From: a virus
Taxonomy: Duplodnaviria > Heunggongvirae > Uroviricota > Caudoviricetes
Reading direction: 5' to 3' (one strand)
IMG/VR virus record: IMGVR_UViG_2778261465_000006
Length of the DNA: 7,703 bases
In this document: piece by piece, positions 1 through 7,703 of the stretch
Position numbering within the stretch: the first letter of the stretch is position 1
Layout of the letters: each line of letters starts with the position of its first letter
The notes under the pieces: generated by a model
What the model was told of the DNA's origin: nothing
Databases searched by the model: none
The model's input: only the letters and a program-made list of their open reading frames with translations
Program-made: the position numbers and the translations under genes

Positions 1-61
1 CGTGATGCGTTTTAATGATTTTGTAATTTTCGTATTTGATAATTGTATGATGCTTTCAGCT

Positions 62-95
62 ACGCCAGAATAATCGCGGCGTTTTTCTTTTTGAA
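62..95 (+). terminator. Candidate intrinsic terminator upstream of the lysis cassette (tR'-like or end of an upstream gene)
   Basis: Stem acgcc (62-66) / ggcgt (78-82) with an 11-nt loop, followed by tttttcttttt. Weak stem, so low confidence. Confidence 0.25.
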
Positions 96-187
96 TAGAT
101 GTTCAAGCCTTACGCTAATGTAACTTCTATACCTTTCCTCTTCGTTCCGAACCGTGTACACCATCCGTTATTTGCGGAGGTGAGGCT

Positions 188-403
188 ATGAAATCCATGG
201 ATAAGTTAACAACGGGCATTGCCTACGGCACCTCCGCAGGCAGTGCTGGCTACTGGTTTTTACAGCTGCTCGATAAAGTCACGCCCTCACAGTGGGCAGC
301 AATAGGTGTGCTGGGTAGCTTGGTATTTGGCCTGCTGACGTACCTGACAAACCTTTATTTCAAGATTAAAGAAGATAAGCGCAAGGCTGCGAGAGGTGAA
401 TAA
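188..403 (+). CDS. essD: Class II holin / pinholin (phage 21 S21 / EssD family), 71 aa, with dual-start motif
   Basis: ORF begins MKSMDK (Met1-Lys2-Ser3-Met4 dual start giving antiholin 71 and holin 68). Two hydrophobic helices ([15 protein letters not shown]; [17 protein letters not shown]) and a charged C-tail. Strong SD GGAGGTGAGG upstream. Stop overlaps the next start (TAATG). Confidence 0.9.
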
Positions 404-900
404 TGCCTCCATCATTACGAAAAGCCGTTGCTGCTGCTATTGGTGGCGGAGCAATTGCTATAGCATCAGTGTTAATCACTGGCCCAAGTGGTAACGATGG
501 TCTGGAAGGTGTCAGCTACATACCATACAAAGATATCGTTGGCGTATGGACTGTATGTCACGGGCATACAGGAAAAGACATCATTCCCGGTAAAACGTAT
601 ACCGAAGCAGAATGCAAAGCCCTCCTGAATAAAGACCTTGCCACGGTAGCCAGACAAATTAACCCGTACATCAAAGTCGATATACCGGAAACAACGCGCG
701 GCGCTCTTTACTCGTTCGTCTATAACGTGGGCGCAGGCAATTTCAGAACATCTACTCTTCTTCGCAAAATAAACCAGGGCGATATCAAGGGCGCATGTGA
801 CCAGCTACGTCGCTGGGCATACGCTGGCGGTAAGCAATGGAAAGGCCTGATGACTCGTCGTGAGATTGAGCGTGAGGTCTGTTTGTGGGGGCAACAATGA
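403..900 (+). CDS. rrrD: SAR (signal-anchor-release) endolysin, T4-lysozyme-like GH24 muramidase, 165 aa
   Basis: N-terminal Gly/Ala-rich weakly hydrophobic SAR segment ([20 protein letters not shown]). Catalytic triad spacing E35...D44...T50 as in phage 21 R. Start overlaps holin stop; stop overlaps Rz start (ATGA). Confidence 0.9.
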
Positions 901-1364
901 GCAGGGTAACCGCGATTATCTCCGCTCTGGTTATCTGCATCATCGTCTGCCTGTCATGGGCTGTTAATCATTACCGTGATAATGCAATCGCCTACAAAGA
1001 ACAGCGCGATAACAAGGCCAGTGAACTGGAGAAGGCGAACGCCACCATTACTGACATGCAGCAGCGCCAGCGTGATGCTGATGCACTCGATGATAAATAC
1101 ACGAAGGAGTTAGCTGATGCGAAAGCTGAAAATGATGCTCTTCGGCGCAAGCTTGATAATGGTGGTCGGGTGCTCGTCAAAGGAAAATGCCCTGTGCCAT
1201 CCTCAGCCGAAACCTCCAGCGCCTCCGGCATGGGCAATGATGCCACCGTCGAACTCTCTCCAGTTGCTGGACGAAACGTTCTCGGTATCCGGGACGGAAT
1301 TATCCGCGACCAAACAGCACTGAGAACGCTTCAGGAATACATCAGGACGCAATGCCTTCGATGA
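897..1364 (+). CDS. rzpD: Rz i-spanin (inner-membrane spanin subunit), about 155 aa
   Basis: Start ATG at 897 overlaps endolysin stop. N-terminal TM helix ([18 protein letters not shown]), coiled-coil-like periplasmic domain, embedded Rz1 in the +1 frame. The track ORF from 885 uses an upstream GTG; ATG 897 is preferred. Confidence 0.85.
1117..1323 (+). CDS. rzoD: Rz1 o-spanin (outer-membrane lipoprotein), embedded in Rz in the +1 frame, 68 aa
   Basis: MRKLKMML start as in lambda Rz1. Lipobox VVGC. Pro-rich mature region ([11 protein letters not shown]). SD AAGGAG 7 nt upstream of ATG 1117. Confidence 0.85.
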
Positions 1365-1538
1365 TAGCGATAATTTTACTCATCATCCTTCACATCTGGC
1401 TCTGTAGACAGGGTGGTGCTCACTTCTGGAGTGAATCCAGATTAAACATCTCATTGCTGATGCTTGATATTGAGCATTTTGCGCGCGGTAAGGGGCTGCG
1501 TTGAGATAAGAACCAGTCATTACAAATACCAGGATTTA

Positions 1539-1561
1539 GCCTCGCATTCGCGGGGCTTTTT
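1539..1561 (+). terminator. Rho-independent terminator downstream of Rz/Rz1
   Basis: Stem gcctcgc (1539-1545) / gcggggc (1550-1556), 7 bp with one G-U pair; loop attc; followed by ttttt (1557-1561) then att. Confidence 0.6.
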
Positions 1562-1573
1562 ATTGCCATTACA

Positions 1574-1603
1574 AAAGCCACTTCCTACAGAGTGGCTTTG
1601 ATA
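1574..1603 (-). terminator. Candidate terminator for the minus-strand accessory operon
   Basis: Perfect 9-bp inverted repeat aaagccact (1574-1582) / agtggcttt (1591-1599) with an 8-nt loop. On the minus strand the stem is followed by UUUUGUAAU. Lies downstream of the minus-strand ORFs. Confidence 0.4.
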
Positions 1604-1645
1604 ATGGTTTATACCCTACACGGGATAACTTAACTGATATCCCTT

Positions 1646-1810
1646 TTAAAGGATAAAGGTATTCAAGCCTGACACATCATGCGCTGTATCGTCGCCGTAT
1701 TCCCGTATTAACAGAGACCGTAGCCCGACGGGGAACTCCTTCTGCGCGAGTGTGCGGGAATAATCAAAAACGATGCACACCGGGGTTACCGGGTACACAT
1801 ATTTCATCAT
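1646..1810 (-). CDS. Possible small ORF (54 aa, MMKYVYPVTPVCIVFDYSRTLAQKEFPVGLRSLLIREYGDDTAHDVSGLNTFIL), hypothetical
   Basis: Below the 60-aa track cutoff; found by manual translation. Sits where bor lies in lambda/DLP12 but is not Bor-like. No convincing SD. In frame with ybcV beyond its stop codon. Could be a gene remnant. Confidence 0.2.
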   Translation of the reverse strand: MMKYVYPVTPVCIVFDYSRTLAQKEFPVGLRSLLIREYGDDTAHDVSGLNTFIL

Positions 1811-1855
1811 GCCAGCGAGTCCGGTTCTGGCACGGAAGAAACCGGACGTTATGAT

Positions 1856-2266
1856 TTAGTGCGGAAATATTTGTGTAGTGTTCTGAATGTTCTCAGTAAA
1901 GAGTAATGAATTATCAAAGGTATAGTAATACCTTTTGTTTTCGTGGATATTTGTAATCCATCTGAAAACCCCTGCTGTAGCAAGATTTTTCCTGTATTCG
2001 TAAAATGATAACTCTCCTGATTTGAATCCTTTTAAGGTGGCTTCTATAAGGCATTTATTTTTTGAAAATCTTACATTTACAACCTTACCCTGTCCTTTTA
2101 TTAAAACCGTATTATCGTTTTCAAGAACAAGATGAATATTCTCTGTAGCTAAATAGTAAATGTAATGTGAGACATTGTGACGTTTTAGTTCAGAATAAAA
2201 CCAGTGATAGTTTAAATTATTTCGCACTTTATCGAATATTTGTTTAAAAATGGCAACCTGAGCCAT
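1856..2266 (-). CDS. ybcV: DUF1398 family protein (YbcV/YdfO-like prophage accessory protein), 136 aa from the second Met
   Basis: Translation [16 protein letters not shown]...[25 protein letters not shown] matches my recollection of DLP12 YbcV and Qin YdfO. SD-like GGAAGG 7 nt upstream of ATG at 2266. The track ORF begins 5 codons earlier at 2281. Confidence 0.8.
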
Positions 2267-2322
2267 TGTAGTACCTTCCATGTGATATGAGGGGCGTAGT
2301 CTGCACGATTATCTAAATTGCT

Positions 2323-2556
2323 TCAATCTGGTCTGATCTGTTTTCTGAGCAATTCAGTAATGTCACTCTTTTCTTTGTTTGCTTCAGGAGAAACTCTTTT
2401 TTCTGAGCACAGTCTCCGGCGGCAGGCTTCAATGACCCAGGCTGAGAAATTCCCGGACCCTTTTTGATCAAGAGCGATGTTAATTTGTTCAATCATTTGG
2501 TTAGGAAAGCGGATGTTGCGGATTGTTGTTCTGCGGGTTCTGTTCTTCGTTGACAT
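2323..2556 (-). CDS. ylcI: Small ribbon-helix-helix (Arc/MetJ/CopG-type) DNA-binding protein, YlcI/DUF3950-like, 77 aa
   Basis: RHH signature: basic N-terminus, beta-strand IRNIRF, helix A MIEQINIALDQ, G-x-S/N turn (KGSGNFS), helix B AWVIEACRRRL, then a charged C-tail. Located immediately upstream of cos/nu1 on the opposite strand, as I recall for ylcI in DLP12. The symbol is tentative. Confidence 0.6.
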   Translation of the reverse strand: MSTKNRTRRTTIRNIRFPNQMIEQINIALDQKGSGNFSAWVIEACRRRLCSEKRVSPEANKEKSDITELLRKQIRPD

Positions 2557-2755
2557 GAGGTTGTCCCGTATTTAGTGTCGCTGATTTGTATTGTCTGAAG
2601 TTGTTTTTACGTTAAGTTGATGCAGATCAATTAATATGATACCTGCGTCATAATTGATTATTTGACGTGGTTTGATGGCGTAGATGCACGTTGTGACATG
2701 CAGATGATAATTATTATCATTTTGCAGGTCCTTTCCGGCGATCCGACAGGTTACG

Positions 2756-2767
2756 GGGCGGCGACCT
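2756..2767 (+). other. cosN 12-nt cohesive-end segment GGGCGGCGACCT (terminase nick sites flank it)
   Basis: Exact lambda cohesive-end sequence, directly visible. Confidence 0.85.
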
Positions 2768-2805
2768 CGCGGGTTTTCGCTATTTATGAAAAATTTCCGG
2801 TTTAA

Positions 2806-2916
2806 GGCGTTTCCGTTCTTCTTCGTCATAACTTAATGTTTTTATTTAAAATACCCTCTGAAAAGAAAGGAAACGACAGGTGCTGAAAGCGAGCTTTTTG
2901 GCCTCTGTCGTTTCCT
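2806..2916 (+). promoter_or_regulatory. cosB small-terminase binding repeats R3 (2808-2814), R2 (2869-2879, inverted), R1 (2905-2915), with an AT-rich IHF-like spacer
   Basis: Heptamer CGTTTCC occurs at 2808-2814 and 2909-2915, and inverted as GGAAACG at 2869-2875. R2 ggaaacgacag is the exact reverse complement of R1 ctgtcgtttcc. The arrangement matches the lambda R3-I1-R2-R1 layout. Confidence 0.7.
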
Positions 2917-2944
2917 TTCTCTGTTTTTGTCCGTGGAATGAACA

Positions 2945-3490
2945 ATGGAAGTCAACAAAAAGCAGCTGGCTGACATTTTCGGTGCGAGTATCCGTACCAT
3001 TCAGAACTGGCAGGAACAGGGAATGCCCGTTCTGCGAGGCGGTGGCAAGGGTAATGAGGTGCTTTATGACTCTGCCGCCGTCATAAAATGGTATGCCGAA
3101 AGGGATGCTGAAATTGAGAACGAAAAGCTGCGCCGGGAGGTTGAAGAACTGCGGCAGGCCAGCGAGGCAGATCTCCAGCCAGGAACTATTGAGTACGAAC
3201 GCCATCGACTTACGCGTGCGCAGGCCGACGCACAGGAACTGAAGAATGCCAGAGACTCCGCTGAAGTGGTGGAAACCGCATTCTGTACTTTCGTGTTGTC
3301 GCGGATCGCAGGTGAAATTGCCAGTATTCTCGACGGGCTCCCCCTGTCGGTGCAGCGGCGTTTTCCGGAACTGGAAAACCGACATGTTGATTTCCTGAAA
3401 CGGGATATTATCAAAGCCATGAACAAAGCAGCCGCGCTGGATGAACTGATACCGGGGTTGCTGAGTGAATATATCGAACAGTCAGGTTAA
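2945..3490 (+). CDS. nu1: Terminase small subunit (lambda gpNu1 / NohD family), 181 aa, apparently intact
   Basis: Translation MEVNKKQLADIFGASIRTIQNWQEQGMPVLRGGGKGNEVLYDSAAVIKWYAERD... matches lambda Nu1 essentially residue-for-residue by recollection. Gene A start lies inside its 3' end, as in lambda. Confidence 0.92.
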   Translation: MEVNKKQLADIFGASIRTIQNWQEQGMPVLRGGGKGNEVLYDSAAVIKWYAERDAEIENEKLRREVEELRQASEADLQPGTIEYERHRLTRAQADAQELKNARDSAEVVETAFCTFVLSRIAGEIASILDGLPLSVQRRFPELENRHVDFLKRDIIKAMNKAAALDELIPGLLSEYIEQSG

Positions 3491-3698
3491 CAGGCTGCGG
3501 CATTTTGTCCGCGCCGGGCTTCGCTCACTGTTCAGGCCGGAGCCACAGACCGCCGTTGAATGGGCGGATGCTAATTACTATCTCCCGAAAGAATCCGCAT
3601 ACCAGGAAGGGCGCTGGGAAACACTGCCCTTTCAGCGGGCCATCATGAATGCGATGGGCAGCGACTACAGCCGTACTGGATGCACTGGAGAAGCATGA
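3465..3698 (+). pseudogene. A: Terminase large subunit gpA, N-terminal fragment (first 68 codons) joined out of frame to gene U sequence
   Basis: MNISNSQVNRLRHFVRAGLRSLFRPEPQTAVEWADANYYLPKESAYQEGRWETLPFQRAIMNAMGSDY matches the lambda A N-terminus. After codon 68 (3666-3668) the sequence is gene U read out of frame, stopping at 3696-3698. The ATPase and nuclease domains are absent. Confidence 0.85.
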
Positions 3699-4041
3699 CA
3701 CCGGGGCGACGCTTTTTGATGGTCGCCCCGCTGTTTTTGATGAGGCGGATTTTCCGGCAATTGCCGTTTATCTCACCGGCGCTGAATACACGGGCGAAGA
3801 GCTGGACAGTGATACCTGGCAGGCGGAGCTGCATATTGAAGTTTTCCTGCCTGCTCAGGTGCCGGATTCAGAGCTGGATTCGTGGATGGAGTCCCGGATT
3901 TATCCGGTGATGAGCGATGTCCCGGCACTGTCAGATTTGATCACCAGTATGGTGGCCAGTGGCTATGACTACCGGCGCGACGATGATGCGGGCCTGTGGA
4001 GTTCAGCCGATCTGACTTATGTCATTACCTATGAAATGTGA
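3649..4041 (+). pseudogene. U: Tail terminator protein gpU lacking its first 8 codons (U-derived from about 3670); an in-frame ATG at 3649 is supplied by gene A sequence
   Basis: AVLDALEKHDTGATLFDGRPAVFDE...[11 protein letters not shown] matches lambda U residues 9-131. The N-terminal MRWAATT is A-gene sequence read in the U frame. Confidence 0.8.
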
Positions 4042-4048
4042 GGACGAT

Positions 4049-4531
4049 ATGCCTGTACCAAATCCAGTAATGCCGGTGAAAGGGGCCGGGACCACACTGT
4101 GGGTTTATAAGGGGAACGGTGACCCTTATGCGAACCCGCTTTCAGACGTTGACTGGTCGCGTCTGGCTAAAGTTAAAGACCTGACGCCCGGCGAACTGAC
4201 CGCTGAGTCCTATGACGACAGCTATCTCGATGATGAAGATGCGGACTGGACTGCGACCGGGCAGGGGCAGAAATCTGCCGGAGATACCAGCTTCACGCTG
4301 GCGTGGATGCCCGGAGAGCAGGGGCAGCAGGCGCTGCTGGCGTGGTTTAATGAAGGGGATACCCGTGCCTATAAAATCCGCTTCCCGAACGGCACGGTCG
4401 ATGTGTTCCGCGGCTGGGTCAGCAGTATCGGTAAGGCGGTGACGGCGAAGGAAGTGATCACCCGCACGGTGAAAGTCACCAACGTGAGACGTCCGTCGAT
4501 GGCAGAAGATCGCAGCACGGTAACAGCGGCA
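4049..4531 (+). pseudogene. V: Major tail protein gpV, truncated after about codon 161 and joined out of frame to K sequence (the ORF runs on to 4681 in the wrong frame)
   Basis: [22 protein letters not shown]...[11 protein letters not shown] matches lambda V. Downstream residues ([12 protein letters not shown]...) are gene K read out of frame. SD GAGGA upstream of ATG 4049. Confidence 0.85.
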
Positions 4532-4809
4532 ATCTGGAGGCCACAGGGCTGTATCAGGTGCCGTTGTCAGCGGCGCAGCCGGGCGATGTGCTGCTGTGCT
4601 GTTTTGGTTCATCGGTGCCGAATCATGCCGCCATTTACTGTGGTGATGGCGAGCTGCTGCACCATATTCCTGAACAACTGAGCAAACGAGAGAGGTATAC
4701 CGACAAATGGCAGCGACGCACACACTCCCTCTGGCGTCATCGGGCATGGCACGCATCTGCCTTTACGGGGATTTGCAACGATTTGGCCGCCGCATCGATC
4801 TTCGTGTGA
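4531..4809 (+). pseudogene. K: Tail tip assembly protein gpK, C-terminal fragment of about 92 codons (NlpC/P60-like region), no start codon of its own
   Basis: Frame-1 translation [70 protein letters not shown]... matches the lambda K C-terminus. Confidence 0.8.
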
Positions 4810-5378
4810 AAACGGGGGCTGAAGCTATCCGGGCGCTGGCCACACAGCTCCCGGCGTTTCGTCAGAAACTGAGCGACGGCTGGTATCAGGTACGGATTGC
4901 CGGGCGGGATGTCAGCACGTCCGGATTAACGGCGCAGTTACATGAGACTCTGCCTGATGGCGCTGTGATTCATATTGTTTCCAGAGTCGCCGGGGCCAAG
5001 TCAGGTGGTGTATTCCAGATTGTCCTGGGAGCTGCCGCCATTGCCGGATCATTCTTTACTGCCGGAGCCACCCTTGCAGCATGGGGGGCAGCCATTGGGG
5101 CCGGTGGTATGACCGGCATCCTGTTTTCTCTCGGTGCCAGTATGGTGCTCGGTGGTGTGGCGCAGATGCTGGCACCGAAAGCCAGAACTCCCCGTACACA
5201 GACAACGGATAACGGCAAACAGAACACCTATTTTTCCTCACTGGATAACATGGTTGCTCAGGGCAATGTTCTGCCTGTTCTGTACGGTGAAATGCGTGTG
5301 GGGTCGCGGGTGGTTTCTCAGGAGATCAGCACGGCAGACGAAGGGGACGGTGGTCAGGTTGTGGTGATTGGTCGCTGA
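4707..5378 (+). CDS. I: Tail assembly protein gpI, 223 aa, full length
   Basis: MAATHTLPLASSGMARICLYGDLQRFGRRIDLRVKTGAEAIRALATQLPAFRQKLSDGWYQVRIAGRD... matches lambda I over its full length. Start overlaps the end of the K fragment, as in lambda. Confidence 0.88.
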   Translation: MAATHTLPLASSGMARICLYGDLQRFGRRIDLRVKTGAEAIRALATQLPAFRQKLSDGWYQVRIAGRDVSTSGLTAQLHETLPDGAVIHIVSRVAGAKSGGVFQIVLGAAAIAGSFFTAGATLAAWGAAIGAGGMTGILFSLGASMVLGGVAQMLAPKARTPRTQTTDNGKQNTYFSSLDNMVAQGNVLPVLYGEMRVGSRVVSQEISTADEGDGGQVVVIGR

Positions 5379-5396
5379 TGCAAAATGTTTTATGTG

Positions 5397-5420
5397 AAAC
5401 CGCCTCCGGGCGGTTTTGTC
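5397..5420 (+). terminator. Terminator-like hairpin in the I-J intergenic region
   Basis: Stem aaaccgcc (5397-5404) / ggcggttt (5409-5416), loop tccg, followed by tgtcgttt. The U-tract is partly inside the stem, so function is uncertain. Confidence 0.3.
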
Positions 5421-5438
5421 GTTTATGGAGCATGACGA

Positions 5439-5666
5439 ATGGGTAAAGGCAGCAGTAAGGGGCATACCCCGCGCGAAGCGAAGGATAACCTGAAATCCAC
5501 GCAGCTGCTGAGTGTGATCGATGCCATCAGCGAAGGGCCGATTGAAGGTCCGGTGGATGGATTAAAAAGCGTGCTGCTGAACAGTACACCGGTGCTGGAC
5601 AGTGATTCCCGCCGTCACATGCCGGGACCATCACCGTGTATGAAGATTCCCGACCCGGTACGCTGA
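5439..5666 (+). pseudogene. J: Tail tip/host-specificity protein gpJ, N-terminal fragment (about 54 codons) joined out of frame to stf sequence
   Basis: MGKGSSKGHTPREAKDNLKSTQLLSVIDAISEGPIEGPVDGLKSVLLNSTPVLD matches the lambda J N-terminus. The following SDSRRHMPGPSPCMKIPDPVR is stf sequence read out of frame. More than 1000 codons of J are missing. Confidence 0.85.
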
Positions 5667-7119
5667 ATGATTTTCTCGGTGCCATGACGGAGGATGATGC
5701 CCGTCCTGAGGCACTGCGCCGTTTTGAACTGATGGTGGAAGAGGTGGCGCGTAACGCGTCCGCGGTGGCACAGAACACGGCAGCCGCGAAGAAGTCAGCC
5801 AGCGATGCCGGCACATCAGCACGTGAGGCGGCAACCCATGCGACTGATGCTGCAGGCTCAGCACGCGCAGCCAGCACGTCAGCCGGACAGGCCGCGTCGT
5901 CGGCTCAGTCAGCATCTTCCAGCGCAGGAACGGCATCAACAAAGGCCAGTGAAGCATCGAAAAGTGCTGCTGCTGCAGAGTCCTCAAAAAGCGCGGCAGC
6001 TACCAGTGCCGCTGCGGCGAAAACGTCAGAAACGAATGCGGCAGCGTCACAACAATCAGCAGCCACTTCTGCATCCGCCGCGACCACGAAGGCGTCAGAA
6101 GCAGCCACCTCAGCCCGGGATGCGGCGGCCTCAAAAGAGGCAGCGAAATCATCAGAAACGAACGCATCATCAAGCGCCAGTAGTGCCGCTTCCTCGGCAA
6201 CGGCGGCAGGCAATTCCGCGAAGGCGGCAAAGACGTCTGAGACAAACGCCAGGTCTTCTGAAACGGCAGCGGGACAGAGCGCCTCGGCTGCGGCAGGCTC
6301 AAAAACAGCGGCTGCGTCGTCTGCCAGTGCCGCGTCAACAAGTGCCGGGCAGGCCTCAGCCAGTGCCACCGCCGCCGGAAAATCGGCAGAAAGTGCCGCA
6401 TCGTCTGCTTCAACAGCCACAACGAAGGCTGGCGAAGCCACTGAACTGGTTATTGGAACCAAACTGTCCGCAAGTCTGAACGGTAATGCATTAACAGCAA
6501 CAAAGCTGCAAACGCCAAGACGGGTTTCTGGTGTTGAGTTTGATGGTTCCAAAGATATTACTTTATGCGTGGCTGGACGATTAAGGGCAAGCCCGCCAGT
6601 GGTCGTGCCGTATTGTCTCAGGAACAGGACGGCATAAAATCGCATACCCACAGCGCCAGCGCATCCAGTACTGATTTGGGGACGAAAACCACATCGTCGT
6701 TTGATTACGGCACTAAATCCACGAATAACACTGGTGCGCATACCCATAGTTTAAGTGGCAGCACGAATGCAGCTGGTAATCACAGCCATAGAGATGGCCG
6801 TCGATTTAACCCCAGTGTTTTTAAAGATACTTATCAATATGGTTATACAAGCTCAGGTCAAAATACCTGGGGTGTACAAGGCTCAGTAGGTATGTCTACG
6901 GGGGCGTTAGCTAATACCAGTACAGATGGTAACCATAGCCACTCACTGTCCGGCACAGCAGCATCTGCAGGTGCACACGCACATACTGTCGGTATTGGTG
7001 CACACACGCACTCCGTTGCGATTGGTTCACATGGACACACCATCACCGTTAACGCTGCTGGTAACGCGGAAAACACCGTCAAAAACATCGCATTTAACTA
7101 TATTGTGAGGCTTGCATAA
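5606..7119 (+). pseudogene. stf: Side tail fibre gene stf: lacks its N-terminus and start, has a frame break at about 6563-6565, and retains the His-rich C-terminal tip domain
   Basis: Frame-2 segment (5606-6637) FPPSHAGTITVYEDSRPGTLNDFLGAMTEDDARPE... plus Ala/Ser-rich shaft matches the lambda Stf N-terminal half from about residue 55. Frame-1 segment (6565-7119) [34 protein letters not shown]...[18 protein letters not shown] matches the Stf C-terminus. The two segments are in different frames. Confidence 0.8.
5760..6420 (+). repeat. Low-complexity Ala/Ser/Thr-rich coding repeats of the fibre shaft (recurring AAKTSETNA-type motif)
   Basis: Motif K-[TS]-SETNA appears at least three times in the translation (near 6016, 6141, 6230) within a GC-rich, compositionally biased stretch. 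This explains the many overlapping spurious ORFs on both strands. Confidence 0.5.
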
Positions 7120-7703
7120 TGGCATTCAGAATGAGTGAACAACCACGGACCATAAAAATTTATAATCTGCTGGCCGGAACTAATGAATTTATTGGTGAAG
7201 GTGACGCATATATTCCGCCTCATACAGGTCTGCCAGCAAACAGTACCGATATTGCACCGCCAGATATTCCGGCTGGCTTTGTGGCTGTTTTCAACAGTGA
7301 TGAGTCATCGTGGCATCTCGTTGAAGATCATCGGGGAAAAACCGTCTATGACGTGGCTTCCGGCGACGCGTTATTTATTTCTGAACTTGGCTCGTTACCG
7401 GAAAATGTCACCTGGTTATCGCCGGAAGGGGAATATCAGAAGTGGAACGGCACAGCCTGGGTGAAGGATACGGAAGCAGAAAAACTGTTCCGGATCCGGG
7501 AGGCGGAAGAAACAAAAAACAGCCTGATGCAGGTAGCCAGTGAGCATATAGCGCCACTTCAGGATGCTGTAGATCTGGAGATCGCAACGGAGGAAGAAAC
7601 CTCATTGCTGGAAGCCTGGAAAAAATATCGGGTGTTGCTGAACCGTGTTAATACAACAACTGCACCGGATATTGAATGGCCAACAGTACCCATTATCGAA
7701 TAG
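7119..7703 (+). CDS. tfa: Tail fibre assembly chaperone Tfa, 194 aa, full length
   Basis: [62 protein letters not shown]... matches lambda Tfa throughout. ATG overlaps the stf stop (TAATG). SD-like GTGAGG upstream. Stop TAG at 7701-7703. Confidence 0.9.

Follow-up and report, generated by a model that had tools for sequence, protein, structure and literature searches.

A base-resolved deletion joint between terminase gene A and tail gene U in a decaying lambda-like prophage of Escherichia coli

RESULTS

The DNA analyzed here (hereafter the window, the whole stretch of 7,703 nucleotides) is that end of a lambda-like prophage which holds the late genes, arranged in prophage order (Table 1). A DLP12-type lysis cassette of holin, lysozyme, and Rz is followed by two leftward genes and then by the joined cos region, Nu1, and the beginning of A, collinear with lambda across its joined ends (2394-3674 of the window equals lambda 48141-48502 plus 1-920). 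The cosN site (GGGCGGCGACCT) is intact and is cut between 2755 and 2756, and identity to lambda is 93.9% to the left of cos and 99.5% to the right. Nu1 is intact, and its protein is 100% identical in amino acid sequence to lambda Nu1. Upstream of Nu1, a one-base deletion of a G relative to lambda lies at about position 139. Two further observations concern sequences nested within genes of the window. A 68-residue open reading frame on the plus strand (1117-1323) lies inside Rz in another frame and carries a lipoprotein-like signal (LIMVVGCSS), as expected of an Rz1-type outer membrane spanin, and Rfam family IS009 (RF02111) matches 7462-7660 on the plus strand within the tfa coding region, at 225 bits against a gathering score of 117.

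Downstream of Nu1, the morphogenesis region is reduced to fragments. By blastn, the window aligned to lambda J02459 as five collinear blocks (Table 1), and the only full-length morphogenesis genes remaining are Nu1, I (98.7% identical to lambda gpI over its full length), and tfa. The lambda proteins W, B, C, D, E, FI, FII, and Z gave no tblastn match in the 17- to 19-kb loci that hold the joint between A and U described below, a search that covered 17 to 19 kb around the joint, with the left part of this strain's prophage lying off its contig. The tail proteins G, H, M, and L and the protein Lom likewise gave no tblastn match, and T and Nu3, which were not among the queries, fall inside the deleted blocks. 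In total, about 17 kb of the left arm has been lost. Because the set of head and tail genes is incomplete, the element is a defective prophage and not a phage. Moreover, it does not look like a cos-packaged, PICI-like phage satellite, as the loci between ninE/Q and attR hold only ordinary lambdoid late genes plus cargo; that comparison covered the window and the ninE/Q-to-attR loci.

The element is placed at the lambda attachment site by its flanking genes. The window is 100% identical to part of contig NNVC01000046.1 of E. coli assembly GCA_002485495.1 (locus L003, 3582-11284), and tfa is followed on the right by a MASE4-GGDEF gene, ybhB, bioA, bioBFCD, and uvrB. Strain OW1E2 has the same tfa-GGDEF-ybhB flank and carries ybhC on the other side. 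Judged by these neighbors, the element sits beside dgcX-ybhB-bioA, between ybhC and ybhB, with the left flank placed from OW1E2, as the contig of the present strain holds the right flank only. The GGDEF gene found here corresponds to dgcX, a gene that has been placed at attB beside lambdoid prophages or their remains (PMC4287979). A survey of 5,426 complete E. coli genomes found the tfa-dgcX junction in 766. Upstream of the holin, between Q and the lysis genes, we observed genes for a lipocalin, a DUF1722/2-thiouracil-desulfurase-like protein, and an AraC-type regulator (window 1-172; locus L002, 2274-5033). Relatives at the same site have an ompC/nmpC-type porin in that slot. For the majority of matching E. 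coli sequences, similarity to the window starts only at 173.

The joint between A and U was resolved to the base. The two blastn matches that meet there have an identity of 99.46% over 920 nt on the A side and 97.3% over 865 nt on the U side, each with an E value of 0. Base-by-base alignment placed the overlap at lambda 914-915 and 8574-8575, and alignment to relatives gave the same breakpoints. The A-side parent showed zero mismatches up to 3669, in alignments both with lambda and with the two closest same-site relatives, the U-side parent matches from 3668 onward, and position 3670 is a G, as in U. The identity common to both parents is CA (3668-3669), embedded in an imperfect 7-mer, CA[T/G]CCGT, that reads CATCCGT in A and CAGCCGT in U and matches at six of seven positions. 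Because the GTG start of lambda A (lambda 711) corresponds to window 3465, codon 68 of A (TAC, Tyr) occupies 3666-3668; U is retained from codon 9 (GCC, 3670-3672), together with two bases of codon 8. The deletion measures 7,660 bp (lambda 916-8575) and removes A codons 69 to 641, the genes W, B, C, Nu3, D, E, FI, FII, and Z, and U codons 1 to 8.

The initial annotation of this sequence had proposed that a single deletion of several kilobases joined codon 68 of A to codon 9 of U across about 2 bp of microhomology (ca) and thereby removed the entire head module. The blastn and base-by-base alignments bear out the breakpoints, the comparison with lambda and the closest relatives turns the approximate overlap into an exact CA, and the intervening genes that were queried have no tblastn match in the loci holding the joint. 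A single deletion does account for the A/U joint, but it is not the sole event in the region, as the window contains at least three, or four, deletion joints. The same annotation had suggested looking for the undeleted state in related prophages, and same-site relatives supply both sides, GPEC1405 for A and CFSAN029787 for U. We conclude that the A/U joint is genuine, the scar of a deletion in a lambda-like E. coli prophage undergoing decay.

The deletion leaves two altered reading frames. Because its length is not a multiple of three, the truncated A frame (A') enters nine foreign codons and stops at 3698. The 77-residue product keeps 68 of 641 A codons and has no Pfam domain left, the ATPase/translocase and endonuclease domains of gpA being gone. 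The second frame, U', arises from an ATG in A DNA at 3649 that the initial annotation had recognized as being in frame with U, and an open reading frame of 130 residues is indeed found there. It begins MRWAATT followed by AVLDALEK and includes the stretch MRWAATTAVLDALEK. Residues 7 to 128 match Pfam family PF06141 (E = 1.4e-57; 194 bits against a cutoff of 25), and residues 7 to 130 align with residues 8 to 131 of gpU in PDB entry 1z1z (E = 2.7e-78). The native N terminus is absent, residues 1 to 8 of gpU being replaced by MRWAATT, and Z is also gone. An exact match to U' is named "phage minor tail U family protein [Escherichia coli]" in its NCBI record.

Whether U' is made is doubtful. Shine-Dalgarno pairing upstream of 3649 was calculated at -3.4 kcal/mol. 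Holin, lysozyme, Rz, V, I, J, and tfa have values of -5.6 to -10.8 kcal/mol; that of Nu1, at -3.3 kcal/mol, is as weak as that of U'. A promoter and terminator scan found no sigma-70-like or other promoter-like site between Nu1 and 3649, and at the joint itself neither that scan nor Rfam gave any match. Thus, of the earlier suggestion that a near-full-length U variant could be made, the reading frame stands, but the weak Shine-Dalgarno sequence and the lack of a promoter-like site speak against production. In lambda, the start of U overlaps the stop codon of Z. Translational coupling of U' through a TGA directly before its ATG was considered and rejected, as the frame ending there is an unsupported, TTG-started open reading frame of 47 residues in A. 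Moreover, because V is cut at codon 161 and G, T, H, M, and L are missing, U' would have nothing to terminate. Taking these features of the sequence together, U' is most probably an accidental open frame that reaches no useful expression level and has no function.

The window contains further deletion joints of the same kind. At the V/K joint, 5,160 bp comprising the 3' end of V, the genes G, T, H, M, and L, and the 5' part of K are missing, and codon 161 of V is fused out of frame to about codon 108 of K. The resulting V' protein has 210 residues, of which residues 18 to 152 match PF16461 (E = 3.5e-69), and the K fragment matches PF00877 only over profile positions 48 to 105. The J/stf deletion measures 4,176 bp in lambda coordinates and removes most of J, lom, and the 5' end of stf. 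Within the Ala/Ser-rich stf gene, 1,262 bp are absent compared with sister strains (loci L002 and L005), and another sister strain (locus L004) has an extra deletion between I and tfa with TAT in common. A', V', and J' are plainly frameshifted stubs. The overlaps are 2 bp at each of three joints (CA at A/U, AA at V/K, and GA at J/stf) and 4 bp and 3 bp (GAAC and TAT) at the two further ones; beyond these 2 to 4 bp of identity, none of the five joints examined showed any homology, repeat, or insertion sequence. The calculated chance of an overlap of at least 2 bp by random joining is about 0.16 per joint and about 0.004 for three.

Carriers of the joint are scattered across independent data sets. 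An exact look-up of the U' protein gave 14 contigs. Three NCBI E. coli assemblies contributed, as did Logan assemblies built from separate sequencing runs, and one of these contigs was seen in 19 samples. Across at least eight distinct contig contexts, which come from different projects and different assemblers, the joint and the fused protein are identical. Each of the carriers found is a draft assembly built from short reads. The A/U, V/K, and J/stf joints were found in 0 of 5,426 complete E. coli genomes by megablast of the joint and the U-to-stf block, and a 27-mer spanning the A/U joint had no exact match among GTDB species representatives or in IMG/VR. U' was present on every contig found to encode a V/K or J/stf fused product, and exact look-ups of the V' and J' fused proteins revealed no intermediate with fewer joints.

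Relatives at the same site are undeleted on one side or the other, or are deleted differently. In GPEC1405, which is 99.5% identical to window 173-3674, Nu1, A (full length), and W are retained together with the beginning of B, and there is a separate B/lom deletion. CFSAN029787 keeps B'-C-D-E-FI-FII-Z-U-V-G-T-H-M-L-K-I-J-lom-stf-tfa and matches window 3668-4532 and 4531-5605 at 99.9% identity, each block having a single mismatch. In E24377A, A (at about lambda position 2268) is joined to stf; F9792 has two fusions, of the Nu1 end with the J end and of lom with the stf end; and OW1E2 is reduced to int', insertion sequences, stf', and tfa. None of the genomes found holds both undeleted sides together, and the parent was therefore reconstructed from two relatives. 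N1193, the best overall match, was rejected as the parent because it carries a different prophage at another chromosomal site. In the N1193 prophage (locus L010, 14772-15487), a separate deletion in the head region has fused the gene for the small terminase subunit with D, the head decoration gene, another independent example of such decay.

Table 1. Positions of genes, lambda-matching blocks, and deletion joints in the window
Feature	Position	Strand	Remarks
Holin	188-403		DLP12-type lysis
Lysozyme	403-900		DLP12-type lysis
Rz	885-1364		DLP12-type lysis
DUF1398 gene	1856-2281	leftward	
77-residue ORF	2323-2556	leftward	DUF3950 (YlcI/YnfO family) by annotation in sister loci and relatives
Joined cos region of prophage	2394-2944	+	2394-2755 = lambda right end 48141-48502; 2756-2944 = lambda 1-190
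Nu1 (small terminase subunit)	2945-3490	+	Intact, 181 residues; PF07471, E = 2.5e-100
A' (truncated large terminase subunit)	3465-3698	+	GTG start; A codons 1-68 (3465-3668), followed by 9 codons of U DNA in the wrong frame (SRTGCTGEA) and stop
U' reading frame	3649-4041	+	130 residues: 7 new N-terminal residues (A DNA, other frame) plus gpU residues 9-131
A/U deletion joint	3668-3674		Left parent L012 exact to 3669; right parent L013 from 3668
V' (truncated tail tube)	4049-4681	+	161 V codons to 4532, then out-of-frame tail from K DNA
V/K deletion joint	4531-4532		Common AA; both sides match the single relative L013 (14842/20001)
K 3' fragment (NlpC/P60 peptidase)	4533-4809	+	From about codon 108; without own start
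I (tail assembly)	4707-5378	+	Intact, 223 residues; PF06805
J' (truncated)	5439-5666	+	55 J codons, then out-of-frame tail from stf DNA; 75 residues
J/stf deletion joint	5604-5605		Common GA; left parent L013 exact to 5605, right parent L012 exact from 5604
stf (side tail fiber) remnants	5606-7119	+	Internal deletion joint at 6443-6446, common GAAC
tfa (tail fiber assembly)	7119-7703	+	Intact, 194 residues; PF02413, E = 1.2e-43
Lambda block 1	2756-3674		Lambda 1-920; cos, Nu1, first 68 codons of A; 99.5%
Lambda block 2	3668-4532		Lambda 8574-9438; U from codon 9, V codons 1-161; 97.3%
Lambda block 3	4531-5605		Lambda 14597-15671; K 3' part, I, J codons 1-55; 95.9%
Lambda block 4	5606-6316		Lambda 19848-20558; stf; 86%
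Lambda block 5	6564-7702		stf 3' part and tfa

DISCUSSION

How the A/U joint arose is very probably a matter of ordinary erosion, in which deletions at very short homologies strip genes from a cryptic lambdoid prophage that sits at the attachment site of lambda. One illegitimate recombination event would have joined A after codon 68 to codon 9 of U, through the CA within the 6-of-7 match, and would have taken out the catalytic part of the terminase, the portal, the protease and scaffold, the decoration, capsid, and head completion genes, and Z. Another two or three events of this kind would have removed the segments between V' and K' and between J' and stf' and part of stf, and the outcome is a prophage unable to package DNA or to build heads or tails. 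Replication slippage and alternative end joining in E. coli yield joints with such short identity. The overlaps at the joints suggest the use of microhomology, and the events may have proceeded by replication slippage or by microhomology-assisted end joining, independently of RecA. The joints with their short overlaps, the gene losses, the chromosomal site, the undeleted relatives, and the independent deletions elsewhere are observed directly; the mechanism, the succession of the deletions, and the lack of function are inferred. Undeleted and differently deleted relatives occupy the same site, and the site thus houses a family of close prophages that decay independently by lineage, the joints in the window being one of its allele sets. 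Because the retained fragments are nearly identical to intact copies, the deletions in the window are suggested to be young.

Could the joint be an artifact of assembly, a chimeric contig built from collapsed reads of two lambdoid prophages? An E. coli genome does carry many lambdoid prophages (a median of six matching places), and the joint is known from short-read drafts and from no complete genome. The same joint and fused protein recur, however, in assemblies made independently of one another, the 2-bp overlap is far too short for repeat collapse, and sister contigs vary in stf and in the I/tfa region yet have the A/U joint in common. We therefore exclude a chimera on the grounds of recurrence and of the length of the overlap, and we consider its probability negligible. 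Deletion next to an insertion sequence, or by homologous recombination between repeats, is extremely improbable. Although IS30 and IS3 were involved in the decay of this prophage in OW1E2, there is no insertion sequence or repeat at or near the A/U joint, and outside CA[T/G]CCGT the parental flanks match at chance level. A less remote alternative, albeit an unlikely one, is that the A/U, V/K, and J/stf joints came from a single complex event with multiple breaks. The constant company of U' on contigs with either of the other fused products, the lack of intermediates among the 5,426 complete genomes, and the uniform 2-bp overlap at all three joints would all fit such an event. The look-ups, however, were of exact proteins and reached few lineages, such that intermediates may be unsampled; the stf-internal and I/tfa deletions clearly arose singly and later in the same lineage, and single deletions are seen in other strains. 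Successive deletions remain the preferred account.

Why cos and Nu1 should survive intact amid such loss invites the idea that the remnant is retained for a function, either to interfere with the assembly of superinfecting lambda-like phages or to allow cos-driven packaging of the dgcX-bio region by a helper. The perfect conservation of the Nu1 protein is consistent with this idea, as is the A' stub, which retains the 68 N-terminal residues; the part of gpA that binds Nu1 is N-terminal. Moreover, all carriers share one identical, open U' frame, and Nu1 is whole or nearly so in the other decayed versions seen. Identity among carriers is nevertheless explained by recency, as the flanking pseudogene fragments are equally identical and are 99.9% identical to the intact relative. 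Junction positions vary by strain, and one cuts into Nu1; U' lacks a good Shine-Dalgarno sequence or promoter, and V', J', and A' are frameshifted. Retention for function is thus very unlikely. More specifically, cos, Nu1, and the 68-residue A stub, perhaps with U', might have been selected because they titrate or misassemble the terminase or the tail terminator of incoming phages, or because a helper packages from cos, and we consider this version very unlikely indeed. If it were true, a selected cos/Nu1/A block would account for the persistence of Nu1 homologs in many cryptic prophages.

The erosion of a cryptic prophage by short-homology deletions, which we favor over these alternatives, has clear parallels. 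The K-12 cryptic prophages DLP12 and Qin carry nohD or nohA with a truncated terminase gene A, the lysis genes essD-rrrD-rzpD, and tfa. Like them, the element in the window keeps a lysis cassette, a cos-Nu1 homolog, and a stub of A, has lost most morphogenesis genes, and ends in remnants of stf and tfa; RefSeq annotation of its relatives uses the DLP12 names essD, rrrD, and nohD. Unlike them, it lies at att-lambda and not at argU or the Qin site, its cos-Nu1-A segment is 99.5% identical to lambda, and between its joints short stretches of U, V', K', I, and J' remain. Compared with the morphogenesis region of lambda J02459 itself, the window is collinear and 96 to 99.5% identical where sequence is retained, but three blocks totaling about 17 kb have been lost from the 22-kb left arm, and the stf sequence is divergent (86%). 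The joints resemble those of short-homology illegitimate recombination in E. coli, with 2 to 4 bp of identity and no other homology. Closest of all are the lambdoid remnants beside dgcX at attB in E. coli O104:H4, 55989, E24377A, and H10407 (Richter et al. 2014, PMC4287979). Those remnants share the site (dgcX-ybhB-bioA on the right), lysis genes of the essD/rrrD type, Nu1/nohD, and tfa, and their size varies by strain (PMC4287979). In contrast to them, the window has breakpoints of its own, at A codon 68/U codon 9, V codon 161/K codon 108, and J codon 55/stf, which occur in none of the complete genomes searched, and its lineage has the lipocalin, DUF1722, and AraC genes, not ompC/nmpC, between Q and the holin. 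The A/U joint is a deletion allele specific to a strain lineage, and the element that carries it is of a known kind, the cryptic lambdoid prophage at attB with dgcX.

The joint is of little importance in itself, and we regard it as a tidy, base-resolved case of a lambda-like prophage disabled by short-homology deletions. For annotation, U' and the V' and J' stubs are best treated as pseudogene fragments. Ultimately, the att-lambda/dgcX locus is a natural series of independent deletion alleles, one that is usable for studying the rates and mechanisms of prophage decay.
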